Origin: a virus
Virus record (IMG/VR): IMGVR_UViG_3300035438_001058
Span: 21,209 to 85,208 of that record
Reading direction: 5' to 3' (one strand)
DNA length: 64,000 bases
In this document: in pieces, positions 1 to 37,548 of the stretch
Position numbering within the stretch: the first letter of the stretch is position 1
Layout: the number at the start of each line of letters is the position of its first letter
The notes under the pieces: model-generated
The model's input: only the letters and a program-made list of their open reading frames with translations
Told to the model about the DNA's origin: nothing
Databases searched by the model: none
Translations under genes and position numbers: made by a program

Positions 1-1100
1 GTGTAAAGATTAATAAATATGGGTTTCATTTTCCCCTCTTTAAATCTTAGAATTCTGCCAGTTTGTTGCGTATTAGTAAGTTTAGTAGATACTCCTGATA
101 AGCATATTGCTCCGTCGACATCTGGCAAGTTAACACCTTCGTTTAAAGCGTCAACTGCTATAAGCAAGTTGAAATCACCGTTCTTAAACGCCTGTAAAAC
201 AATTTCTCTACTCTTTAACTTCATCTTAGAGTGGTAAACTCTACCCCCTACTACAGATCTTAAAGCTTCAGCAAATTTAATACTTTTAGTAAACAGCAAC
301 CACTTTCTATTTGGCTCAAACTTTTCTATTATAGCTTTGGCGACACTAATCTTGGTAAGATTATTGTAAACCACTAATTTTCTTAGTTGCATGGCTCCCC
401 AGTATTGTTTGCAGAGCGTCTTTAGTTCCCTATCGTCAGAATACTGTTCAGCCTTAGCCAGATCAAACACGTTACGATATCTAGAAGATAAATTAGGATC
501 TTCACTTCGCAACCTGTCCAGCTTTATTAGCGACGTATTAAACACGTTGTCAAATGCCTTGTATTTACCTGCCATTGATTTGTCCATCCCCACTTCTAAG
601 TTGTAGATATTGAATTTAGGTAATATACCTTTATCGACAACATCTAATAAACTCTTGGCGTAAACAACTGGCGCTACTATACCTAAAAACTCTACGTACT
701 CTTCTTCGTCTGGTATTGTTGCTGTTAAGCACAACATAGACGTAGCTTTAATACTTTGAAATACTTTTCTGTATTCAGGAGAAAGAGCTCTATGAACTTC
801 ATCTATGATCACGAAATCGTATTCAGCGACATATCTGTAAGCAGATTGAATGCAAAGATAATCAACATTATTGTTATCTCCTAATTCTGCGGCAAATAAT
901 TCCCTAAATTGGTGTATAATGGGGATTCTTGAGGTAATGACTAGTGTCTTAGGAGGGACTCTAAAAGACTTAAAAGCCATTACCGCAAGTCTGGATTTTC
1001 CTACCCCGGTAGGTAGTACAACCGTTCCCCATTTACCAGCCTTATCTCAGGCTGTCAACGCTTCATTTTGAAGTGCTGTTACATTTTCTCTTAGTTTCAT
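1..1100 (-). CDS. Superfamily 2 (DExH) helicase, runs off the left edge; one TGA=Trp at 1047-1049
   Basis: Manual translation from ATG 1100: MKLRENVTALQNEALTA(W)DKAGKWGTVVLPTGVGKS, IIDEVH, LTAT, DALNEGVNLP, QQTGRILR. Missing from the ORF track. Confidence 0.9.
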
Positions 1101-1101
1101 C

Positions 1102-1884
1102 TTAGGTGCATGAGGCACAGTGGCCTCTTTCGTTAAAATATTCGTTTGTGCTGTCCAAGGCTTTTAAGCAGCTGGTACATTTGCCTTCACTTAAGTTGGC
1201 CATACAATTAGAGCAAAATGTGGCGTACTTAGTACTAGGAGTAAATTTTGCGTTACATCCTAAGCACGTGGACAATCCCTTAGCTTCTTTAGTGCAAGAT
1301 TTGCATAGGGTTCTACCTACTGTGGTAGCTTTTCTGCATTTTGGGCAGATTTTAATGTCTTTACTATCTCTGGTGGCAGAAGTGTGGATCTGAATTTCTT
1401 TATAGCAATCTTTACATTGCCCCCTAGAGTTTAAGTGCGAAACATTTTTACAACTAGAACATTGTTCTGTCTTGTTGGTTTTTGGCATAAAGTTTCCGCC
1501 ATAAAAACACTCTGGGCACGCACTAGTGTGCGAGGCATAAACATCACATTCATTCTTACACTTCGAGCATATAAGGGTTGCCTCGCTAGCGCAAGCCCCA
1601 CATAGGGTTTCTCGCACAAGGCGGGAATTGCTGGGTATTAACTCGTTATCTTTTTCAAAACAACGTTGACACGCTCCTGCTATATTAACCCATTTCTGCT
1701 CACCACACTCGTGGCAAACATCTTGGTGAGTTTCGACCCATTCTGCGTGCGTAGGGGCAGTTAGAACGCTAGAAGCAGGGTAACCTTTACACTTTCTACA
1801 AGTGTTCTTACAATTACTGCATACAGCGTTCTCTAAATAGTGAAAGCAAGATGGGTCTAAGCACTGCCTGCTTTCACTCTCTAG
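1102..1884 (-). CDS. Cys-rich multi-CxxC (zinc-ribbon-like) domain, probably reached by -1 frameshift from the upstream gene
   Basis: Frame is open from 1893 to TAA 1102. CxxC motifs begin about 80 codons before the first ATG/GTG/TTG (1617). Confidence 0.7.
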   Translation of the reverse strand, partial: LESESRQCLDPSCFHYLENAVCSNCKNTCRKCKGYPASSVLTAPTHAEWVETHQDVCHECGEQKWVNIAGACQRCFEKDNELIPSNSRLVRETLCGACASEATLICSKCKNECDVYASHTSACPECFYGGNFMPKTNKTEQCSSCKNVSHLNSRGQCKDCYKEIQIHTSATRDSKDIKICPKCRKATTVGRTLCKSCTKEAKGLSTCLGCNAKFTPSTKYATFCSNCMANLSEGKCTSCLKALDSTNEYFNERGHCASCT

Positions 1885-1890
1885 TTTTTT
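1839..1890 (-). other. Candidate programmed -1 ribosomal frameshift signal
   Basis: In-phase A_AAA_AAC (1890-1884), 5-nt spacer, 12-bp stem AGTGAAAGCAGG/CTTGCTTTCACT (1878-1867 with 1850-1839). Confidence 0.7.
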
Positions 1891-2999
1891 GATTTAGAGG
1901 GTAATGTGATGGCATCTTTGGTCCACCCTTGAAGAGTCTCCCTAATTTGCACCTGTAGCTGGGGTTTAGTGATCCCCTTGTGTGTAGCAGGTTTACCAGA
2001 CTCTAAGGTCTTGATACCCATGTTAATCTCCACTATGCCAGCAAAAGCTTTTGTCTTTGCTGCATCATCCATTTTGATGTAGTAAGGAAGAATTTTATCC
2101 ATCCAGACTTGTGGTTTGTCTATCCCTAGAAATTCTAAGGCAGTTGTTATCTGGTCTGTGGCCTTCTTGTTCACCTTTTTCGGATCATTGTCCTTTTTCT
2201 CATCGTCTTTCTTGTCCTCGTCCTTCTTATCTTCTTTCTTATCTTCTTTTTTCTCTTCTTTCTTCTCAGCTGGAACGTCAAACATATCTGTGTTCAATGC
2301 GTGCTGAATTCCCTCTTTTGTTAAGGACAATTTAAGGGCAAGAACGACCTCATAAATTGTCAGAAGCAAGTGAAATGTTGTTATAATGACGCTACTCATC
2401 ATAGCGCTATGAAGATTAGCAAAAGGAGAGAAAGTAGGTGGATACCTATTCTCTGCTATTACAGCCGTCAAGAAGGAAGGATGTAAAAATCCCATCTTCA
2501 CCTTCATCATTACCCAGAAGCATTCTAATTGACCTGTGTTATGCACAGCGTTGGCCATAGCTAACATATTTACTATTGGAGCGCCGACAGCAAAGATGAA
2601 GGATATTAGAATAATTACTAGGATAGTAGAGCCTAAACCCATTCGCACCCCTATTGGTCTTGGTATAACAAATACGGAAACAAACTCGCCAATAGCTTTT
2701 GCTAAGCCAAAAGCACCGACAGTACTGATAGCCGCTGCAATTAGGTGAACTGACATTCGCACCGTTACATTTGTCTTTTCGTCTTGCACTGAACCTAGTA
2801 GTGCTGCTTCTGCTATCAACGCAGATAGTTGTAAACCTATTAGATAGGTAAAGTTGTACTTGATAATTGCTCTAGCTAAAAGAGCTGCAGGTTCTAATCC
2901 CTTTAATTTGGGATCTTTTTGTGCTTGTTTGTACAGGTAATAGGTCAAAAGACCTACGCAAACGAAGAAGGCGACAAATACTATCGTGCTCTCTATCAT
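1881..2999 (-). CDS. Multi-pass membrane protein with K/D/E-rich linker and soluble C-terminal domain
   Basis: Several hydrophobic segments in the first ~225 aa, then EKKEEKKEDKK low-complexity linker. Confidence 0.75.
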   Translation of the reverse strand: MIESTIVFVAFFVCVGLLTYYLYKQAQKDPKLKGLEPAALLARAIIKYNFTYLIGLQLSALIAEAALLGSVQDEKTNVTVRMSVHLIAAAISTVGAFGLAKAIGEFVSVFVIPRPIGVRMGLGSTILVIILISFIFAVGAPIVNMLAMANAVHNTGQLECFWVMMKVKMGFLHPSFLTAVIAENRYPPTFSPFANLHSAMMSSVIITTFHLLLTIYEVVLALKLSLTKEGIQHALNTDMFDVPAEKKEEKKEDKKEDKKDEDKKDDEKKDNDPKKVNKKATDQITTALEFLGIDKPQVWMDKILPYYIKMDDAAKTKAFAGIVEINMGIKTLESGKPATHKGITKPQLQVQIRETLQGWTKDAITLPSKSKN

Positions 3000-4891
3000 T
3001 ATTTATTCCATATTTTAGTTATTACTGCTTTAGCTGGGATATCTAAATGAGTAGTGTATTCTCTAGAAGCATCTAGGCAACACTTCTCTAATATCTTTGC
3101 GACAGTGTGTGAGAATTCGTCGGGGCATTCGAGTATTATTTCATCATGCACGAACAGTACGATTTTAAAAGGTATTTTTTTAGCAAATTTTCTAAGGAGA
3201 ACTCCAGCCCTCTTACCTATATCGGCAGCGGTTCCTTGTACTGGAATATTCTGTGCCCATCTCTGTATTTTTGAATCCCAGTAACTATAGGCGTCTCTAA
3301 TAGCTGGGTGTGGATCAGTGTATGTTAATCTGCACTTCTCCATGTACTTCTTGCACTCTAAATAATCATCAAAGAATGGAACAAATGACTTTCTACCGCT
3401 AACGGGGTTACAAACTACATATCCAAAATTCTTAGCCTCTAATCCTTGGTTGGAAAAGTATGCCTCAAGTTTTGGGAAGCTATCGTAATAACCTCTAATA
3501 AGAGATTTTGCTCTTGTTATAGGAATATCAAATTGTTCCGAAAGTTTTTTAGCTCCTCCGCCGTAAGCTATCAAGAACCCTATGGACTTGGCTATACGAC
3601 GTTCTTCGCTGTCTTTGGTCAAGTTCGGATCATTAAATGCGATCTTAGCAATCTCTAGGTGAAAGTCCGTACCGCTACCGCAAGCTTTGATCATGTTTGG
3701 GTCTCCAGACTTATCCGCTATTATCCTTGCTTCTTGGTTTGAAAAGTCAGCCACTACAAACGAGTGGCCTTCTTCTGCCATGAAAGCAGATCTATAGACG
3801 TCACCTCTTGAAATATTCTGTAAATTAGGATTAGTGGAAGATATCCTACCTGTACGCATTACCTGCATGAAGGAAGAATGTACCCTTCCAGAATAAGGGT
3901 TGATGTGCCTTAAAAATTTGTCCCCATAAGAGACTGCCTTTTTCTTGAGCATCTTGTAATCCAAATAAGTCTTGAGTATGCTAAACTTAGCTTCCTGTTT
4001 GAGAAGCACTAGTCTCCCTACACTCTCCTTTATTTCCCCAGTCTTTTTGTCTAGAGTAAGAACATCTACCCCTATTCCTTTCAGGGCGGTTACAGCTTGT
4101 TTAGGGCTGTCCCAATTTATATCAAATTGGGCAAGTAATTGATCATGCAAACTCTTGGCTTGCTTAGCGACTTCTTGGGCATTACTAAGCCACCTATTCC
4201 CTTCCAGGAATATTCCGTTTAGCTCCATATCTCCCAAAACCTTAATAAACTCAAACTCGAGTTTTAAGGTACGCTTTAAGTCCAACTCTCTCGCCTTCTC
4301 GACTAATTTCTTTTTTAGTAGAGCCGTGGCTTCCACGTCCATCGCTCCATAATATATTTGTTCTAAGGTAAACGGTGCATCCCCTATAGTGGAAAAAGAA
4401 GTCCGTACCTTTTTAGTAACTGTAGGCGCGAATAGATTGCCTTGGCCGCTGTAATAGGCTCTTACATACCTAGCAACGCATTGCTCGAGTGTGAAGTGGC
4501 CTTTAGGCGCATCTTTACCGCATTCAATAATCTGAGCGGCAATCATAGTATCCCAAAGATTCTCTAATCTTATCCCATAATTACTGGCTATAACTTGGTA
4601 GTCATACTTGAGATTATGTCCGAGTATGGGCCTATTCGAATCTTGTATGCTTCTAAGTAGGCCTTTAGGGCAATGTTCTCTAGTGTCGATAACAACTTGT
4701 GTGCCGCCATTCCCAAGTTGGAGCATGATAACCTGACGATCAAACAAATTAGTAAAATCACCAGTAGTCTCCGTATCGAGGCAAATTTCATCTCAGTCTT
4801 TTATTAGGTCCTGAATCTGGTTAAAAGTTATTTGGGAAATATCCCCCTGTTGTATGAGCCATACCCCTGTCGTAGATTGCTGTGTAACCAC
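2999..4891 (-). CDS. polA: Family A DNA polymerase with 3'-5' exonuclease; TGA=Trp at 4793-4795 (GTG 4891 start tentative)
   Basis: ExoI ICLDTETTG lies upstream of the track's TTG and just after the TGA. Also HNLKYD, TGRISSTNPNLQN, ADFSNQE, RRIAKSIGFLIAYG, VQGTAAD, VHDE. Confidence 0.92.
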
Positions 4892-15185: not shown

Positions 15186-15223
15186 TTTTTTTGGAGAGAG
15201 GACTTAATGCCTCCCTCCATTTT

Positions 15224-16021
15224 TTAATCATACTTGTGTAAATCGTACGTCTCGATTACCCGCACAATCGTGGCGGCATAATCTGGTGCAGTTGCATACC
15301 CGCATTTTTGAAGCCCCGACGCCCACGACCGATAGTCTTTTGACCAAAACAGCCGCTTGTAACGCTTTGCCTTCAAGAATGCCGAGTGTCTTTTGTAAGA
15401 CTCTTCCGCACTCGTGAACTTCAGGAAAAAATCTTTGTGGGTATCATCCGTGTAATTCGAGCAGTGGCCCCTTTTGCAGGCTTTTGAAAAACACTTCAAC
15501 CCAAAATGGTTGTTGTTCTTCACGGCCAGTGAGGACGTGCCCGCTCTAGACTCTATTAGCCCCTGAGCTAAGGTTATAGAGGCAGGGATTCCTGTGTTTT
15601 TTGCTTCCCGTTGGGCAATCCGAGCGAATTTCGCGATATACGCTGGTGCGTCATATTGCGGGGGCATTGCCGGGGCTTGTGGGTTAGCCGCCTTCTTTTT
15701 GACGGGCTTATAAACCATCTTTTCCGGGGCCTGTACTGCCTCAGGGATTGGTTTTGCCACTGCATAGGCGTACACCAGCCGTGGACTTGGGTTATCACTC
15801 GTCAACGCGGTTACAGCACATCCAATGGTAGCTGTACCTGTCGCAAAGAACAACACAATGCCCACTTTGGTGTGCATATTGACACTCTTAAAAAACTTTA
15901 TTTGTATGAGGAACCACTCATGCAGTTCCAAATCCCTCACACTTTTTGTCTTTCTATATGGTTGCAGTTCCATACTAAAAAAATTTTGAGATTTAAAAAT
16001 AGACTTGTATTTGAACATCAA
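15224..16021 (-). CDS. GH73 glucosaminidase/muramidase (FlgJ-like) with TM segment
   Basis: GIPASITLAQGLIES, NNHFGLKC, GYATAPDYA. Confidence 0.9.
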   Translation of the reverse strand: MMFKYKSIFKSQNFFSMELQPYRKTKSVRDLELHEWFLIQIKFFKSVNMHTKVGIVLFFATGTATIGCAVTALTSDNPSPRLVYAYAVAKPIPEAVQAPEKMVYKPVKKKAANPQAPAMPPQYDAPAYIAKFARIAQREAKNTGIPASITLAQGLIESRAGTSSLAVKNNNHFGLKCFSKACKRGHCSNYTDDTHKDFFLKFTSAEESYKRHSAFLKAKRYKRLFWSKDYRSWASGLQKCGYATAPDYAATIVRVIETYDLHKYD

Positions 16022-28490: not shown

Positions 28491-28736
28491 ATGACTATAA
28501 AGGTTAATATTTCTTTCGAACTTTGGCCATATCAACAGTCTTACTCAGTAGAAATACCAGAAGATAAGTTTAAGGAAATGGATAAGTATGTGGATTCTAT
28601 AACATCTAATTTAAAGATGTCATTATTATCCCATGTACGTGTCCATCACCCTAATTTATGGTATAAATATTCTCCTTTAGAAGATCAAATACTGGCAACT
28701 TTAAAAATAGAAAATCACACACACAAAATTAAATAA
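28491..28736 (+). CDS. Hypothetical protein
   Basis: TAATG coupled to groEL. Confidence 0.55.
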   Translation: MTIKVNISFELWPYQQSYSVEIPEDKFKEMDKYVDSITSNLKMSLLSHVRVHHPNLWYKYSPLEDQILATLKIENHTHKIK

Positions 28737-30337
28737 TGACAAAGAATATTCATTTAGAAAAAGAAACACGAGATAAAATGCTGGAAGGTGTTTTAACTTT
28801 GGCACACGCAGTAGGATCTACACTAGGACCAATGGGGTCAAACGTAGTAATTGAGACTCCTTACGGAGCTACCACAGTTACTAAGGATGGAGTCACTGTA
28901 GCTAAACATATTGATTTAGATGATGCTGTGCAAAATTTAGGAGCGCAGATATTAAAACAAGCTGCTTCAAGAACAGCTACTCTTGCTGGCGATGGTACAA
29001 CAACTGCTACTGTAATAGCTGCGTCTTTAGTACAGTCTGCGCATAAATTAATTACTGCGGGTGTGAAGCCTATTGATATTAAAAGAAGGTTAGAAATTCT
29101 CTTATTAGAAGCTCTGAATAAGATTCGGATTCAAGCTAAGAGTGTTGACCTTAATAGGATTAAAGAGATCGCCACTATCTCAGCAAATAATGATGAGGAA
29201 ATGGGGGCTTTAATTCAAGACGCTTACAACCATGTTGGCCCCAATGGAATGATCACTTTAGAGGAATCTAAGACAGGTCTAACTCATTTGGTTATGGAAG
29301 AAGGAGTTTCTATTGACAAAGGATTTGTATCTCCTTATTTTATCACTGATTCTGCAAAAGGAGAATGTATTCTAGAGAATCCATTTATCTTTATTACTGA
29401 TTCTAAAGTTAGATATACTCAAGATATAGTACCTATATTGGAAATTGCTGCTTCTAAATCAAGGCCCCTTCTTATTATAGGAGACGAAGTAGATGCTCAA
29501 GCTCTTCAGTTGCTCGTACTAAATAAGATGCGCGGGACAATACAAGTATGTGCTATAAATGCCCCTTCTTTTGGGGATAACAGAACAGCGATATTAGAAG
29601 ATATTGCTGCCCTAACATCTACTACTATTATAACCGCTAAAGCTGGCACTAGGTTAGAGGATACTCCAGAAAGAGCATTAGGAAATGCTCAAAAAGTTAT
29701 CATATCAAAGTCGAAGACTATATTAGTAGGACCTAAGAATAACTTAGAGGCTATTGAGTCTAGAGCTGAAGAAATTCGTAACTCTATGGAATTGGAGCAA
29801 GATCTTTATTTAAAGAATAGACTTCAAAAAAGATTGGCTGATCTTACTGCTAAAGTAGCTGTGCTTCATGTTGGGGGAGCTACTGAAACTGAATTAAAAG
29901 AACGCAAAGATCGTGTAGATGATGCTCTAAGGGCTACTGCTTGTGCCATACAAAAAGGTTACCTTATTGGCGGCGGTGTAGCTCTAGCTCGTGTGTCTTC
30001 TTTCATAGAGATAAAAGATGCTTTAATAGATCCTATTTTTATAAACGCACTAACATCCCCTCTAAAATTAATAGCTTCAAATGCAGGGCAAACAGGAGAA
30101 GTAGTTTTAGCTAAAGTTTTATCTTCAGAAGATCTTGATATTGGTTTTAACGCTCGCACGCTCAAGTATTCTAATTTATTAGAGGATGGTGTAATAGATC
30201 CCGCGTTAGTAGTTGAGCAAGCACTCTCAAACGCAGTATCAGCGGCTTCTATGATATTACTTTCTGCTACGGCAATCACAAATAAAGATAGAAAACCTCC
30301 TTTTAATCCAGGTAATATGGAAGATTATGCTGCATAA
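28736..30337 (+). CDS. groEL: Chaperonin GroEL
   Basis: TLGPMG, VTKDGVTVAK, AGDGTTTATV, GGATETELKERKDRVDDAL, GVIDP. Confidence 0.97.
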   Translation: MTKNIHLEKETRDKMLEGVLTLAHAVGSTLGPMGSNVVIETPYGATTVTKDGVTVAKHIDLDDAVQNLGAQILKQAASRTATLAGDGTTTATVIAASLVQSAHKLITAGVKPIDIKRRLEILLLEALNKIRIQAKSVDLNRIKEIATISANNDEEMGALIQDAYNHVGPNGMITLEESKTGLTHLVMEEGVSIDKGFVSPYFITDSAKGECILENPFIFITDSKVRYTQDIVPILEIAASKSRPLLIIGDEVDAQALQLLVLNKMRGTIQVCAINAPSFGDNRTAILEDIAALTSTTIITAKAGTRLEDTPERALGNAQKVIISKSKTILVGPKNNLEAIESRAEEIRNSMELEQDLYLKNRLQKRLADLTAKVAVLHVGGATETELKERKDRVDDALRATACAIQKGYLIGGGVALARVSSFIEIKDALIDPIFINALTSPLKLIASNAGQTGEVVLAKVLSSEDLDIGFNARTLKYSNLLEDGVIDPALVVEQALSNAVSAASMILLSATAITNKDRKPPFNPGNMEDYAA

Positions 30338-32570
30338 TGCACAAAATTTCTTAGTCAAAGATGTGGAAATTCTCCATCCTTTGTCTCAAGATTATCGTTC
30401 TTATTGAAGAGAACACAAAAGAAGATGTATTGAAGGTTATTGGGTGGGTGGCATTTGGATGCCGCCTGCCCTTTACTATTATGTAAACTTTCATACTATA
30501 AAACTTAATAAAAGTATTCACACTAATACTAAGTCGTACGGTAGACCTTTGTTACGGGATATTGAGTGGGAATTTTTCTATAATTATTCTGAAGCGAGAG
30601 GTTTCTCAGGTTTTAAGAACGATGATAAGTATTCTTGTCATAGAATACTTTTGAATACTGAAGCTACAGACGATTACTTAATTAAATATTACCCAGAGAC
30701 TGTAAATTCTAAGGGGGAAAGAAAGACTTACGTGCCAGCTAGGACGTATATGCGTCAAGTACATCCTTTTGAATCTTCTCCTTTGTTTCAGAACGAGATT
30801 AGGAATTTTATGATGTTAGGATCTCGTGGATTTGGTAAATCTTTCTCTGTATCAGGACTCATAGCTCATAATTTCTTATTTGATGGAGCTACTGAATACA
30901 GCGAGGAAAAGATAATGAATCCGGACGCTGCTGAGATATTAGTAGGGGCGGCCAAATCTGATAGATCCGCAGATATTCTTAAAAAAGTGAAGGATGCATT
31001 TGATTTTTTACCCGGAAAACAGATGGTTAATAATAGGACACATCCATCACCATTCTCTAAACGATTTAGCGGATCTTGAGCAGTTAATTCCACTATTGCA
31101 GCAGAATATAAACGTAAAACAGAAGGTCAATGAACCACAGTAGGTTCCAGATCTAATATAAAGCACAGATCTTTCAACTCAGATGCTTTTGCAGCTCAAG
31201 GAACCAGGCCCATTTTACTAGTTTTGGAGGAAATAGGTATGTTTCCTAATTTAAAGGAAGTACACGCTAACACAGTGGATAACTTAACTGACGGTTACCG
31301 TAAGACTGGTATGGCTATGATGTTAGGAACAGGTGGTGACATGGAACAAGGTACTTTAGATGCTTCTGAAATGTTTTACGAGCCTGATAAATATGATATA
31401 TTGTCTTTTTCTAATGACTGAGAGAGTTCTGGTAACATAGGATACTTTGTTCCAGCGTATTTAGCGCTCAATCAATTTAAAGATGCGCAAGGAAATACCG
31501 ACATAGCGGCTGCTAAGAAGGAGATTGATTCTGTTAGGCGCAAGAAACGTGGAAACTCAGGATCTTCAGATGCGTTGAATAAGGAAATGCAGTATAGACC
31601 TATTGTTCCATCTGAAATGTTCTTAACTAAGACAGCTAACATCTTTCCTGCCGCTGAAATTAGGAGAAGGCTTTCAGAAGTGCAGTCATTTGATCTGTAT
31701 AACCAGTCAGAGAAGAAAGTTAATCTATATTTCGACCCAAAATCTCAGTTTAATGGTGTATCTTACAATATAAATGACTCTTTAAACGCCATTAGCTCGT
31801 TCCCGTACAAGGGAGATGATAGAGAAGGGGCTGTTGTTTTATACGAATTACCTAAGTTTATAGAAGACAAGGTCCCGTCAGATGCCTATATTATAGGATG
31901 TGACCCATTTAGAGATGATACGAATACAGGAGAATCTTTGGCAGCTATATATGTTATGAAAACCTCTAAATACATATCTAGTATAGGGTATGATGAGATA
32001 GTAGCCTCGTATATTGGTAGACCATACTTCGGTAAAAATGAGGTAAACGAAACTCTATATAAATTGTCCTTATTTTATGGGGGTGCTAAGATTTATTTTG
32101 AGAATGCAGTAGGAAATGTAAAAGATTACTTTGAGAAAATCAGAAGACTAGACTTATTAGCTAGGCAACCAGTCACAGTTTTTAATAAGAAAGCTTCTTA
32201 TGATTCATCCCCGCAAGTTATTTATGGGTACCCAATGTCTAATGATAAAGTAAAATGAGAAGCGATACAATACTTACGCTCTTGGTTATTGCAAGAACGT
32301 GAAGAAAATAAAAGAAATCTGGATTTAATTATAGATCCAGGCCTACTTCAAGAGTTATTGGCCTTTAATATGAGTATAAATACTGATAGAGTAATGTCTT
32401 TAGTAGGTTGTATAATAGGATTAGAAGAAATAAACAATATCTCGAAAAGAAAGCAAGAGTTTTTGTCTGAAGATAGCGCACTTCAGAAGGACATTAATAG
32501 GTTAATTATAAATAATAAACGTTTATTTCAAGATGTTAAATTTCCCAAAGCAACGTCTCTCCTATTCTAA
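30327..32570 (+). CDS. terL: Terminase large subunit, 747 aa, five TGA=Trp (30405, 31077, 31131, 31419, 32256)
   Basis: Four track fragments share one frame broken only by TGA. Walker A GSRGFGKS, Walker B LVLEEIG, nuclease IIGCDP; directly upstream of the portal. Confidence 0.93.
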
Positions 32571-34956
32571 AAAATCAGAAGATGATTTTAGATGGGCGAG
32601 GAAAGTTATGGAATCTTTACTTCAATTTTCTCCAGCACAAAAGAATATAGCTAGTGATTACACTTCAGAGTACGGAAGGAAATTATCTAACTATAGGTTG
32701 TACAATAATCAACTAGATCAGAAAGATTTTGAGAGAGAATGTAATCCATTAGGATTAGAAGTAGGGCAATTCCAGGATTCAATACAACCTTATAATAAGA
32801 CATATAATAAGATTCAGGTTTTATTAGGTGATGAGTTAAAACGTCCGTTTAATTACAGAGCGGTTTTAGTCAACACTGAGGGCGTGCAGTCTAAGTTACA
32901 GAAGAGAGATTCTTTATATAGAAACTATATATACTCTCAGTTACAAGAAACAGTGAAATCTATAGGTGCCGCTTATGTTCCAGAGTTAGTCGATACAATG
33001 ACAGAGCATATACTACCTCCAGAGGACATTGAAAAATACATGAAGTACTCCTATCGAGAGCGAAGAGAAATCTTAGCTGAGAATATACTCAACTATTTAA
33101 CGAGAAAATTATCCTTAAAAGATAAGAAAAACGATGCTTTCAAGCACGCGTTAATAGCTGGAGAGGAAATCATTTATGTAGGTACTAATAATGGTGAGCC
33201 TCACCTAGAAGTCATTAATCCCCTAGGAGTGTTTTACCACAAGTCTCCAGAAACAAAGTGGATCCAAGATTCATTATATGCTGGATTTAGGACTTATATG
33301 ACGGTAGGAGAGGTTATGGATAGATACGGTAAGTATCTAACCAAGGCTGAGATTACTAAGCTGGACAATACCACTACAGCAGGAGGAGCTTTACCAGACC
33401 ATAATATGGGCAGTACGCAGTCGTACGGCATACAAGATCAAGATAGGGTTTTATCTAAGATGTATAATTATGACTCAGGATCTTACGGAGATTCTCACCA
33501 CGAGGATATATTAGTACAGCACGTGGAATGGAAGTCCCAGAAAAAAGTAGGCTTTCTAACCATGATAAATGAGTATGGGGAAGAAGAAGAGCAGATGATA
33601 TCTGAAGATTTCAAAGTCCCTAATAATGCTATAAAGCAGGTGGAAGTAAAAGACTTTGGTCAAAGATGTGATTATTATTATTGGGAAGAGAATGGTATAA
33701 AATTCAAATTAGAATGGGACTGGATTCCAGAAGTTTGGACTGGTACAAAGATCAATAACGATATTTATTGCATGATAGGACCTAAAGATCAACAATTCAG
33801 ACCTTTAGATAATCCCAAAGAAGTGTCCCTGGGGTATCACGGAGTAATCTATAATGCTATGAACGCTACCTCTATCTCATTGATGGATAGAATGAAGCCT
33901 TACCAGTATCTGTACTTTATTGTTATGCATAAGCTTAAAAAAGCTATAGCACAAGACCAAGGTAAAGTATTTCACTTCGATGTTACAATGATTGATCCTA
34001 AAATAGGATTGGATAAAACCATGTACTATTTAAAGGAGATGAATATAGACTTTTTTAATCCATTAGCTAATGGAGATCAGCCTGGGCAAAATCAAAGGGG
34101 TAAAGTATCGCACTCTACCGATATGTCTAATATGGCCAATATCAATAACTATATTAATCTACTGCAATCCATTGATCAGCAAATATCAGACGTAGCAGGT
34201 ATTAATAGACAACGAGAAGGACAAATTTCTCCTTCAGAAGCGGTGTCTAATACCCAATCAAACCTTCAAATGTCGGCTTTGATTACTGAGATTTATTTTC
34301 AAGCTCACTCCAAACTATGGGAGAAATGTTTGAATTCAATGATAGCTGTAACCCAACAAGCTTGGAAAGGTAAAAGTATAGCAAAGCAATACATATTAGA
34401 TGATCAATCAATCGCTACACTAGAGATGAATAATGATGATATTATGGATTGTGAGCTAGGAGTTTTTGTTACGGATTCAGGTAAGGAGTACGAAATATTC
34501 AATGCTCTTATGGGCAAAGCGGAGTCACTTGTACAAGCACAAAAAGCTTCTTTTTCTGATATGATCCGATTATACGAGTCTAACTCAGTAGCAGAATTAA
34601 AGGCTGGTATAGAAAGCTCTGAAGAACTAAGTCAGAGACGACAGCAAGAAGCACAACAAGCTCAAATAGAAGCAGCTCAACAAGCTCAACAAGCAGAACA
34701 TGATTTCCAAATGGAGAAATTGGCTATAGAACAAGAGCATGAGTTAATGATAGCTCAGATTGAATCATTTAAATTCCAGAAAGACCAGGATGCAAATGAT
34801 AATGGGTTACCAGATCAATTTGAGATTTATAAGTTACGTCAAGACGCTGGTTTTAAAGATCGTAAACTATCCCTAGAAGAAAAAAAGTTAGAATTCAATA
34901 AGCAGAAAAGCGAAAAAGAGTTACAAATAAAGCGTTCTCAAAACAATAAAAAATAA
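32533..34956 (+). CDS. Portal protein (crAss-like)
   Basis: 807 aa after terL; FPKQRL start, SLMDRMKPYQYLY, Q-rich coiled C-terminus. Confidence 0.85.
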   Translation: MLNFPKQRLSYSKKSEDDFRWARKVMESLLQFSPAQKNIASDYTSEYGRKLSNYRLYNNQLDQKDFERECNPLGLEVGQFQDSIQPYNKTYNKIQVLLGDELKRPFNYRAVLVNTEGVQSKLQKRDSLYRNYIYSQLQETVKSIGAAYVPELVDTMTEHILPPEDIEKYMKYSYRERREILAENILNYLTRKLSLKDKKNDAFKHALIAGEEIIYVGTNNGEPHLEVINPLGVFYHKSPETKWIQDSLYAGFRTYMTVGEVMDRYGKYLTKAEITKLDNTTTAGGALPDHNMGSTQSYGIQDQDRVLSKMYNYDSGSYGDSHHEDILVQHVEWKSQKKVGFLTMINEYGEEEEQMISEDFKVPNNAIKQVEVKDFGQRCDYYYWEENGIKFKLEWDWIPEVWTGTKINNDIYCMIGPKDQQFRPLDNPKEVSLGYHGVIYNAMNATSISLMDRMKPYQYLYFIVMHKLKKAIAQDQGKVFHFDVTMIDPKIGLDKTMYYLKEMNIDFFNPLANGDQPGQNQRGKVSHSTDMSNMANINNYINLLQSIDQQISDVAGINRQREGQISPSEAVSNTQSNLQMSALITEIYFQAHSKLWEKCLNSMIAVTQQAWKGKSIAKQYILDDQSIATLEMNNDDIMDCELGVFVTDSGKEYEIFNALMGKAESLVQAQKASFSDMIRLYESNSVAELKAGIESSEELSQRRQQEAQQAQIEAAQQAQQAEHDFQMEKLAIEQEHELMIAQIESFKFQKDQDANDNGLPDQFEIYKLRQDAGFKDRKLSLEEKKLEFNKQKSEKELQIKRSQNNKK

Positions 34957-35023: not shown

Positions 35024-36067
35024 ATGATAAATACGAATGATGACTTTTTAGAGCAAATGTTTTCTGATCCTTCAACTACTCCATCAATGCTAAATGATGA
35101 TAAAGGTTTTGAAGATTCCCCAGAAATAACTTCTGATGAAACAGAAGAACCAGAAGACGCTCCGGAAGCTCCTAGAGAAGTTTTAGAAGACAATGACCCA
35201 GTTGTAGAGAATTACGTAAAGTTTCTACAAGAGAATGATCTTATAGAGATACCAGAAGATTACGATTTTCAAGGTACTCCAGATCAAATTCAGGAAGTAT
35301 TTGAGTACACTAAAAAAACTAGGTCTGATAAAGCTATACAATCAGTTTTTCAGCAACTTCCAGACGACTTCAAACCACTCCTAGAATACGCGCTTAGAGG
35401 CGGGACTTCTCTGCAGGATTATATGGATACTTTTTCTGATGACTTATCTAACTACGGTTTAGACACTGAAGAAGACCAAAAAGAAATTCTATTTAAATAC
35501 TACAAAGAAACCTCTCCTTATCCAGACGATAAAATTGAGCGGTTGATTTCTCGTTTTAATGATGAGGAAGAACTACGTCTGGAAGCAGCTGATGCTTATC
35601 AAGAGTTGCTGCAAATACGCGAAGAAAAAAAGAGAGAGCTCATCGTGGAAGCACAGGCTCAAAGAGAAGCGTATAGAGCAGATCTTGAACAAAAGACTAT
35701 ATCTTTAAACAGAGCTATAGAAGAAACAACTGCTATTCATCCACAAAGAAAAAACAAAGTACGGGCTTTCTTTTTTGATCCCATACAAACAGCAAACTCT
35801 GTTACTACAGGATTTAATGCTACGATAGCTTCTATCTTATCAAATCCAGAACATCAGGCACAACTTGCTGATATACTATTAGATTATAATCATAATAATG
35901 GTTTTTCCTCTGATAGAATAGAACGACGTGTTAAAACTAAGGCAACTCAAGATTTTAAGACGTTATTGAAAACTAAACTAGATCCAAAACAAGCTCAAAG
36001 ATCTTCAACATCTAGAGCACCTCAATCAACTTCCTTTAATTGGGAAGACTATTCACAATCTTTATAA
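35024..36067 (+). CDS. Acidic scaffold-like protein
   Basis: Position between portal and capsid gene; acidic N-terminus. Confidence 0.65.
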   Translation: MINTNDDFLEQMFSDPSTTPSMLNDDKGFEDSPEITSDETEEPEDAPEAPREVLEDNDPVVENYVKFLQENDLIEIPEDYDFQGTPDQIQEVFEYTKKTRSDKAIQSVFQQLPDDFKPLLEYALRGGTSLQDYMDTFSDDLSNYGLDTEEDQKEILFKYYKETSPYPDDKIERLISRFNDEEELRLEAADAYQELLQIREEKKRELIVEAQAQREAYRADLEQKTISLNRAIEETTAIHPQRKNKVRAFFFDPIQTANSVTTGFNATIASILSNPEHQAQLADILLDYNHNNGFSSDRIERRVKTKATQDFKTLLKTKLDPKQAQRSSTSRAPQSTSFNWEDYSQSL

Positions 36068-36072
36068 TTTAC

Positions 36073-37548
36073 ATGGCTACTCCTCAATCTTCTTTAATAA
36101 TCAAACGTTACGACGCTTTTGGCGGTAACTTTATTGATTCTGATTACCTAGCTGCTTCTTACGAGAGCGGCAAACCTACATACCTGCCAGGTATGATGAT
36201 GCAGACATATTCGTCACAGTCACGCTTTATGAATCTGAAACCCCTCTTGAATCTTGTTGGCGTTAGTTCCAACGGAGGAAAAGAGATTGAATCTGAAATT
36301 GTTCGTTGGTACCTACGTGGCGCAGAAGATCGCGATGCTCGTTCTATTGAAGCTGTAGATATTACCAACACTACACCAGGTCTTAACGGTACTACTTTCC
36401 GCATTAAATTGGATTTGGATTATTTCCACTTCCCAGATATCCTTACTCCAGAAGATAACGATTTCCCTATTCAAGTAGTGGAAGGAGCAATTCCAGACGG
36501 TACAGGTTACATTTATGTTTGTAAACTTGTTACAGACAACCCACAGCTTTTTGTAGACCCTAATCTTTTACAGGCTGGTCGCACTTTCACTAAAGTATCT
36601 ACCGCTGTGCCTTCTGAGTACAACCAATGGTTCGGCACTCAGCAGTATCCAAACGTATTCTTGCTTGAAGCACAACTTGGTTCTTTCGGACAATCTTTGC
36701 ACATCACTGACAAAGCTTGGAGAGACGGTGGTCGTCTTGGAGTTACTTTCCAGCACACTAACGCTGCAGGCGCTACTTCAGAGGTAAACAAATTTATCCC
36801 TTACGCAGAGAACGTAATGGTAGATGAGTTCTACAAAACTATCGAATGGGCAGCTGTATACGGTAAGAAATCTACCATGTCAGGTCCAGATAAATATTGG
36901 ATCAAAACAGGTCACGGTCTTCGTGAGCAACTCAGAGATGGTTGGACTCAGCAATACACTGGAGCTCTTTCTGTAACACTTCTTCAAGATTATCTGATGT
37001 CCGTATTCTTTGGACGTGCTGATGAGACTAATCGTGATGTAAAAGTAATGACCGGAACTCTCGGTTCAATCTTGTTCCACAATGCTTTGGCAGCTGTGGC
37101 TAACGGATTCCTTACCGTTGATACACACTATGTACGCGATATCAAATCTCCTACATCTACTCCTTGGCTTGCTTATGGCGCAGAGTTCCGTCGCTATACT
37201 GGTCCATCAGGTATCTCCGTAGATTTGATGTTGAATCCAATGTACGATAGTATGCAGTATTGCAAACAATTCCACCCACAGTACCCAGATATGCCGATTG
37301 ATTCCGCTCGTATGACATTCCTTGATTTTGGAGGAATGGGCGTAGACAAGAACATTGAGCTTCTGAAAGTTAAGGACTCTTTCTATTACGGCTACAAGCC
37401 TGGTATGTTGTCCCCATCTGGCCCAATCAAAAATAACGGTATGTTTGGCGAATTAAAAGCTGGTTACGATGTAGCTATCCAAGGTTCTTTCGGTATTGTT
37501 ATGCGTGATGTAACCCGTGGTGGTGAACTTATCATGTCTGTAGAGTAA
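36073..37548 (+). CDS. Major capsid protein (crAss-like)
   Basis: About 490 aa, synteny, TGHGLREQL, distinct codon bias; start MATPQ. Confidence 0.85.
   Translation: MATPQSSLIIKRYDAFGGNFIDSDYLAASYESGKPTYLPGMMMQTYSSQSRFMNLKPLLNLVGVSSNGGKEIESEIVRWYLRGAEDRDARSIEAVDITNTTPGLNGTTFRIKLDLDYFHFPDILTPEDNDFPIQVVEGAIPDGTGYIYVCKLVTDNPQLFVDPNLLQAGRTFTKVSTAVPSEYNQWFGTQQYPNVFLLEAQLGSFGQSLHITDKAWRDGGRLGVTFQHTNAAGATSEVNKFIPYAENVMVDEFYKTIEWAAVYGKKSTMSGPDKYWIKTGHGLREQLRDGWTQQYTGALSVTLLQDYLMSVFFGRADETNRDVKVMTGTLGSILFHNALAAVANGFLTVDTHYVRDIKSPTSTPWLAYGAEFRRYTGPSGISVDLMLNPMYDSMQYCKQFHPQYPDMPIDSARMTFLDFGGMGVDKNIELLKVKDSFYYGYKPGMLSPSGPIKNNGMFGELKAGYDVAIQGSFGIVMRDVTRGGELIMSVE

Follow-up and report, generated by a model that had tools for sequence, protein, structure and literature searches.

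The locus described here lies on the minus strand of a 64,000-nucleotide stretch of DNA (hereafter the window) that is part of the 85,208-bp IMG/VR virus record IMGVR_UViG_3300035438_001058, and consists of a membrane-protein gene that ends in a slippery heptamer and overlaps a long cysteine-rich reading frame in the -1 frame. Its closest described counterparts are cases of -1 programmed ribosomal frameshifting (PRF). In IS1 (insA / insAB'), which we take to be the case behind the frameshift cluster A_AAA_AAC_1, most of the product is the short upstream protein, and a rare fusion carries an extra domain. That cluster is listed among the proven bacterial frameshifts for which no stimulator is established (PMC4066793). 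The likeness to the present locus lies in the heptamer, A_AAA_AAC in both, whereas the IS1 product is a transposase and no downstream stimulator is established for it, and the locus in the window encodes a phage membrane protein and has a hairpin apparently under selection and a zero-frame stop adjacent to the heptamer. The dnaX gene of Escherichia coli, a replication gene, relies on a downstream stem-loop and a Shine-Dalgarno-like element about 10 nt ahead of the heptamer as stimulators and yields two isoforms (tau and gamma) differing in their C-terminal domains, frameshifting giving the shorter one. Its natural shift site, A_AAA_AAG, is also the heptamer on which E. coli ribosomes slip most readily (PMC5009743); one relative of our locus (L003, see below) has exactly this site. 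Unlike in dnaX, the shift proposed here would lengthen the protein, by 260 residues, and inspection of the 21 nucleotides (nt) upstream of the heptamer found no Shine-Dalgarno-like element (GGAG or AGGA-type) in any of the five loci compared. Among double-stranded DNA phages, -1 PRF is known for the tail assembly chaperone G/GT of lambda, the major head protein of phage A2 and gene 10A/10B of T7 (PMC10885494, PMC5009743), which resemble the present case in that a fraction of the molecules receives a C-terminal extension and in that the position is conserved across divergent phages. Those cases belong to tail or head modules, whereas the locus studied here sits between the genes for a family-A DNA polymerase (PolA) and a helicase and belongs to a membrane-protein family without annotated relatives.

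We read this locus as a -1 PRF of the tandem-slippage type at A_AAA_AAC, with a probability of roughly 0.84; it would be a new member of a known recoding type, in a protein family known only from metagenomes. The elements on which this reading is built are the following.

2999..1881, minus strand: multi-pass membrane protein of 372 amino acids (aa), zero frame (from the listing of open reading frames, homologues and hydropathy)
1890..1884, minus strand: slippery heptamer A_AAA_AAC, in phase, zero-frame codons TCA AAA AAC
1883..1881, minus strand: zero-frame stop TAG, directly after the heptamer
1102..1890, minus strand: -1 frame extension of 262 codons plus TAA (1104..1102), with 33 Cys, a putative poly-zinc-ribbon tail
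1617..1615, minus strand: GTG, the first canonical start in the -1 frame, at codon 91 after the heptamer
1839..1878, minus strand: stem-loop with a 12-bp stem and a 16-nt loop, after a 5-nt spacer (UAGAG) behind the heptamer

The 3' end of the 372-aa open reading frame (ORF) reads CCC TCT AAA TCA AAA AAC TAG, with the heptamer in phase, as the original prediction, made from this DNA alone, had it. The heptamer alone is not significant, since in-phase slippery heptamers are common in this AT-rich genome: 176 of the form X_XXY_YYZ occur in the 72 long ORFs of the window, where A_AAA_AAC/G is found in phase 14 times against 12.4 +/- 3.5 expected from codon shuffles. What is above chance is its position at the last sense codons, the 262-codon extension behind it and its conservation in relatives. 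Among the heptamers of the window, only the one at 1890..1884 directly precedes the stop of a real gene, and its -1 extension is the longest of all. The only other site near a stop (TTTTTTA, 15220-15226, plus strand), in phase four codons before it and followed by a 109-codon -1 extension, was rejected, the ORF that carries it being spurious and antisense to AAA-ATPase-like and GH73-like genes.

The -1 frame is stopped by a TAA one codon ahead of the heptamer and stays open thereafter for 262 codons, where 260, closed by TAA three codons upstream, had been noted. Its first canonical start comes at codon 91, so that the start-less stretch noted earlier (no ATG, GTG or TTG for 89 codons) is borne out with a slightly different count. 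The 33 Cys of the tail are arranged as 15 CxxC motifs plus one CxxxxC, the first of them being codon 10, which agrees with the earlier description of a frame rich in CxxC from near its start. These residues would suffice for about eight Cys4 sites, and zinc binding is predicted; the assignment to zinc ribbons follows from the CxxC...CxxC pattern. Initiation at the GTG (1617..1615) would lose three invariant Cys pairs together with the first finger, which is common to four of the five loci.

Conservation in relatives had been put forward as a check on the original prediction, and five loci were compared at the DNA level: the window, L002, L003 and L004 (all from IMG/VR) and L005 (from an ENA metagenome). 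The membrane proteins of the four relatives are 47% (L002), 37% (L003), 58% (L004) and 59% (L005) identical to that of the window, and their tails 31-44% identical to the window tail. The membrane-protein genes of the relatives end as follows.

L002: GCA AAA AAC GGA TAG
L003: TCA AAA AAG GCG TAG
L004: ATA AAA AAC TAG
L005: CTA AAA AAC TAG

All four thus have an in-phase A_AAA_AAC (L002, L004 and L005) or A_AAA_AAG (L003) with a TAG zero or one codon further on, and in all four a Cys-rich ORF in the -1 frame overlaps the end of the membrane-protein gene. The codon before the run of A encodes Ser, Ala, Ser, Ile and Leu in the five loci, always with A as its third base. At the protein level, 11 of 14 family members have a C-terminus with K-N or K-K within the last three residues, which fits the same heptamer. 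The stop lying 0 or 3 nt past the heptamer is TAG in all five loci, while TAA ends 52 of the 72 long ORFs of the window; a TAG beside the slip site may be selected, for example for slow UAG termination in a phage that tampers with stop-codon reading.

The tails of the five loci align over their full length with 41 invariant columns, 31 of which are Cys and form 14 invariant CxxC pairs, and the first finger (CLxxxCxH...CxxC) starts about 8-12 residues past the slip site in four of the five. Along the part of the tail in which the window has no start codon, L004 and L005 differ in the manner of a coding sequence (32 identical, 38 synonymous and 22 non-synonymous codons; 16, 10 and 52 differences at codon positions 1, 2 and 3). 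In the first finger, the same two loci show 7 identical, 12 synonymous and 3 non-synonymous codons when read in the -1 frame, and 5, 1 and 15 in each other frame. On these codon patterns the tail is coding and under purifying selection, in the -1 frame only. Counted to the upstream -1 stop, the first ATG, GTG or TTG of this frame is codon 91 in the window, 139 in L005, 14 in L004, 17 in L002 and 15 in L003.

The 12-bp stem that the original prediction had placed 5 nt downstream of the heptamer is present: the arm AGUGAAAGCAGG (1878..1867) pairs with CUUGCUUUCACU (1850..1839), including one G-U pair. The pseudoknot suggested along with it fared less well, as the CAGUG loop and the CGCUG do exist and could form five pairs (G-U included), but they show no conservation and nothing beyond chance. 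The stability of the structure was compared with that of 500 recodings that keep the protein, over the 53 nt after the heptamer (83 nt for L003).

Window: -17.9 kcal/mol observed, -7.9 +/- 3.2 in recodings, z -3.2, with 0.4% of recodings folding as well
L004: -19.4 kcal/mol observed, recoded mean -10.4, z -3.0
L005: -17.4 kcal/mol observed, recoded mean -8.5, z -3.4
L002: -16.1 kcal/mol observed, recoded mean -11.9, z -1.3, not significant
L003 (83 nt): -35.1 kcal/mol observed, recoded mean -22.3, z -3.4

At four of the five loci the structure thus exceeds its synonymous recodings in stability, with z between -3.0 and -3.4. Relative to the heptamer, the stem starts at +6 in the window, at about +9 in L004 and at +8 in L005 and L002, a PRF stimulator being expected about 5-9 nt after the heptamer. 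In the four loci with the first finger, the 3' arm falls on its Cys-Pro/Phe-His codons (Cys-Phe-His in the window) and the 5' arm on the variable linker that directly follows the slip site. The homologous helices of L004, L005 and L002 have CCC:GGG pairs where the window has UUU:AAA, and RNAalifold, run on an independent MAFFT alignment, regained the shared helix with three compensatory pairs.

The simplest objection to a frameshift is that there is none in the living phage, the interruption being a homopolymer error of the assembly or a frameshift mutation in a once continuous gene that is now decaying. The sequence is a metagenome assembly, and the contigs available for comparison have a low depth (3-6x) at which rare variants are possible. 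Those contigs nevertheless come from four independent runs of four studies (freshwater 2017, crustacean-associated 2017, lake 2024 and one 2025 study), and all span 1884-1890 with an identical A6 run and no indel, a result that bears on the read check of this run proposed earlier; the sole nearby difference, 1902 T>C, is synonymous in the zero frame. The same frame relation is moreover found in four divergent relatives from other samples, with the tail under purifying selection in all, and a continuous in-frame version is absent among 14 membrane-protein and 90 tail database matches. An artefact or a decaying gene is on this evidence very improbable. The A6 run also brings to mind transcriptional slippage, in which RNA polymerase would add an A so that some mRNAs encode the fusion in one frame; a six-A run is present in all five loci, and one extra A would yield the same -1 product. 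Polymerase slippage, however, needs neither the same codon phase, which is kept in all five loci, nor the PRF-like hairpin spacing seen in four, and six A are few beside the runs of about nine or more A or T used in documented productive bacterial cases. We regard this explanation as quite improbable.

That the Cys-rich ORF is instead a separate gene whose product is never fused to the membrane protein, with initiation for example at ATC 1893, at an internal GTG or ATG, or by a restart behind the TAG, seems unlikely, even though poly-CxxC proteins that stand alone and have their own Met (300-355 aa) do occur in the wider family, an ATG lies near the tail start in L002 and in the database proteins P0015 and P0021, and Bacteroidota-type genes need no Shine-Dalgarno sequence, whose absence is hence of little information. 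Against it stand the start-less 91 codons of the window and 139 of L005, which hold invariant Cys pairs under purifying selection; the lack, in L004 and L005, of any of seven start-like codons (CTG and ATH included) up to and at the first conserved Cys; and a first available start that differs in position in every relative. Independent initiation would also leave the conserved in-phase heptamer, the fixed -1 relation and the hairpins unexplained. The ATC at 1893, which the original prediction had named as the alternative start, is ATC in only two of the five loci, the others having CAT, GCT or AGC in its place.

Several points weigh against ribosomal frameshifting at this site. An early tail ATG is found in L002 (codon 17), in P0015 (same column) and in P0021 (just before the first Cys), and independent initiation may occur in the genomes of these three. 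The L002 fold is not significant, and in L003 the strong hairpin starts about 22 nt past the heptamer, a distance beyond that of a classical stimulator. The K-N or K-K end is missing from P0012-P0014, the three most divergent of the membrane homologues. DNA was read for 5 of about 15 family members, nine further homologues (P0002-P0005, P0007-P0011) being represented by their protein C-termini. The functional reading discussed below has no family or fold match behind it, and both AlphaFold2 (AF2) models are poor, with a predicted local distance difference test score (pLDDT) of 64 for the membrane protein and 59 for the tail. Finally, ribosomes of E. coli shift much less on A_AAA_AAC than on A_AAA_AAG (PMC5009743), so that the long form is probably a minor product; the presumed host here is one of the Bacteroidota. 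A_AAA_AAC does serve g-t expression in a haloarchaeal virus (PMC5009743).

Under the frameshift reading, the 372-aa protein would come from the majority of ribosomes, which decode ...TCA AAA AAC and terminate at the TAG next to it. In a fraction of ribosomes, the tRNAs in the P and A sites would move back by one base at A_AAA_AAC and pair anew with AAA AAA, probably helped by the resistance that the hairpin, 5 nt further on, offers to the ribosome. Translation would then go on in the -1 frame for another 260 residues, and the resulting protein of 632 aa would read ...SKSK(N/K)LESESR across the junction. The two isoforms of 372 and about 632 aa of the original prediction are thus supported by comparison, the long product being a predicted one. 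Membrane anchor, charged linker and helical domain would be common to both, and the long one alone would have about eight Cys4 zinc-ribbon units. We infer the slip itself, its efficiency and the binding of zinc from sequence.

By hydropathy, the zero-frame protein has about five hydrophobic helices in residues 1-226; a linker rich in K, E and D occupies residues ~245-272, and residues 273-359 make up a helical C-terminal domain, modelled as four helices (AF2 and hydropathy). Lys/Arg-rich loops follow helices 1 and 3, which suggests a topology with the N-terminus out and the C-terminus in. The positive-inside rule and the high charge of the linker would place the C-terminus and the tail on the cytoplasmic side, and it is the charged linker together with the Cys4 pattern that leads us to argue for a cytoplasmic, zinc-binding tail. 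The linker (window ~2190-2270) is polymorphic in length, with a 12-nt deletion at 2242 in run X7 and different lengths among homologues, and its region draws many unrelated low-complexity contigs when reads are mapped.

A search among 5.8 billion proteins yielded 13 homologues of the membrane protein, all of 349-372 aa and with strongly conserved membrane motifs; none of the 13 is fused, in a search range that covered the fused length. Pfam, PHROGs and NCBIfam hold no family for this protein, and the ESM Atlas gave no usable match for it. In fold searches, Foldseek against PDB gave no match at E <= 0.001, and a wide search with VIA returned generic helical bundles only (Z <= 12, inside the noise range for helical proteins). 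None of 50,697 deposited phage records was matched in blastn and tblastn searches that took as queries the locus, its membrane protein, its tail and one of the stand-alone homologues of the tail. Single-protein scans of IMG/VR were likewise without a match, and a scan with the tail alignment gave only three already known contigs.

The tail, for its part, has 12 clear orthologue clusters (E < 1e-29) in a full HMMER scan of 1.84 billion representatives with a tail profile, and the fused form was not among them or elsewhere in that scan. All 12 extend to the C-terminus, and their called N-termini are scattered over profile positions 10, 14, 21, 31, 47, 56, 73, 87, 88, 89, 103 and 104, the pattern to be expected if, for want of a genuine start in the ORF, gene callers settle on whichever chance start codon comes first. 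Searches of Pfam, PHROGs and NCBIfam with the tail gave nothing beyond sub-threshold matches to Pfam DZR, which scores 16.9 bits against the window tail (gathering cut-off 27.3) and matches all five members weakly (best E-value 5.5e-5). A PDB sequence search with the tail returned weak zinc-finger matches only (E >= 0.024). One long protein, P0044 (1843 aa), matches the tail profile only in its residues 185-351, and another, P0089 (675 aa), considered as a fused form, was rejected as an unrelated double-zinc-ribbon repeat protein.

Related to the tail is a wider, unannotated family (P0029-P0056) in which poly-CxxC proteins stand alone: they are 300-355 aa long, have start codons of their own and show 33 invariant Cys in an eight-member alignment. 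P0029, the one member tested, has no match in deposited phage genomes. Since such proteins exist elsewhere, the tail would appear to be an independent module that is attached by frameshifting in this lineage.

The genes that flank the locus in the window are two.

4792..2999, minus strand: family-A DNA polymerase (PolA), upstream neighbour
980..3, minus strand: helicase, downstream neighbour

All genes at the left end of the window (PolA, the 372-aa ORF, the Cys-rich frame at 1893..1102 and the helicase) are on the minus strand, and the order PolA, membrane protein, Cys-rich ORF, helicase recurs in all four relatives; the placement between PolA and helicase given by the original prediction therefore holds in all five loci. 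The PolA stop overlaps the start ATG of the membrane protein in TAATG (window 2997-3001, minus strand), which suggests that the two genes are translationally coupled. Tail-chaperone frameshift sites lie just upstream of the tape-measure gene and have chaperone-like products, whereas here the flanks are PolA and helicase and the product is a multi-pass membrane protein. After the helicase, two of the relatives encode another Cys-rich protein, about 400 aa long and with numerous CxxC pairs (L002:6977-8170 and L003:6904-8109); the matching position falls just beyond the edge of the window.

As to the phage itself, its portal is about 30% identical, over the full length, to portals of crAss-like phages with Bacteroides, Flavobacterium and Cellulophaga hosts, and it looks like a distant freshwater crAss-like phage. 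Its structural genes and chaperonin are listed jointly.

32533-34956, 30213-32570, 36040-37548 and 28736-30337, plus strand: portal, terminase, major head protein and full-length GroEL-like chaperonin

The helicase of three relatives has an in-frame TGA (RK-TGA-LLFTK; L002:6660-6662, L003:6569-6571 and L004:6708-6710) where the window has TGG, and the PolA of L003 has one as well (L003:3677-3679). Reading TGA as Trp raises the long-ORF content of the window from 17,296 to 22,771 residues. From the helicase TGA opposite TGG and from this gain, it seems that the phage group reassigns TGA to Trp. Such a reassignment would leave the frameshift reading unaffected, since TGA occurs in neither of the two frames at the locus in the window, where the zero frame stops at TAG and the -1 frame is flanked by TAA stops. 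The tail ORFs of L004 (5911-5913) and L005 (4387-4389) end in TGA; reading it as Trp would lengthen the tail by 15 residues in L004 and by 2 in L005.

What the two isoforms might do can be framed by analogy. The phi29 proteins p16.7 and p1 are membrane-associated replication proteins, p16.7 binding DNA and organising replication at the membrane, and both are small, cross the membrane once and are not known to have zinc ribbons or frameshifting. The likeness to the present case, a phage membrane-anchored protein in a replication context, is one of functional analogy only, with no relation in sequence or fold. Tentatively, the protein could tether phage DNA or replication proteins to the membrane by means of its zinc-ribbon array, a role we favour because the gene is coupled to PolA and always lies between PolA and helicase; as a tether, it would have its ratio of bare to loaded anchors set by the frameshift. 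A more elaborate and rather doubtful version would make the frameshift a ratio or timing device of a membrane-bound replication scaffold in TGA-recoded crAss-like phages, in which the anchor-only form would be the platform beside PolA and helicase, the rare zinc-ribbon isoform would tether DNA or replisome proteins, and the UAG might couple the isoform ratio to the state of release factors or suppressors in a cell whose genetic code the phage alters.

Phage annotation pipelines seek frameshifts almost only in tail-chaperone genes, which make up 2,397 of the 2,476 annotated cases in the PRFect training set (PMC10885494), and the present site concerns another module and another kind of protein. 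Gene callers miss or truncate about 90-140 conserved codons in every member of the family, and it is because they truncate the tail ORF that the long isoform and the first zinc fingers would be absent from protein databases. The loci provide a natural set of A_AAA_AAC/G-plus-hairpin sites for studying frameshifting on Bacteroidota ribosomes, and they draw attention to an unstudied membrane protein that, with or without its predicted poly-zinc-ribbon tail, is genetically tied to phage replication genes.

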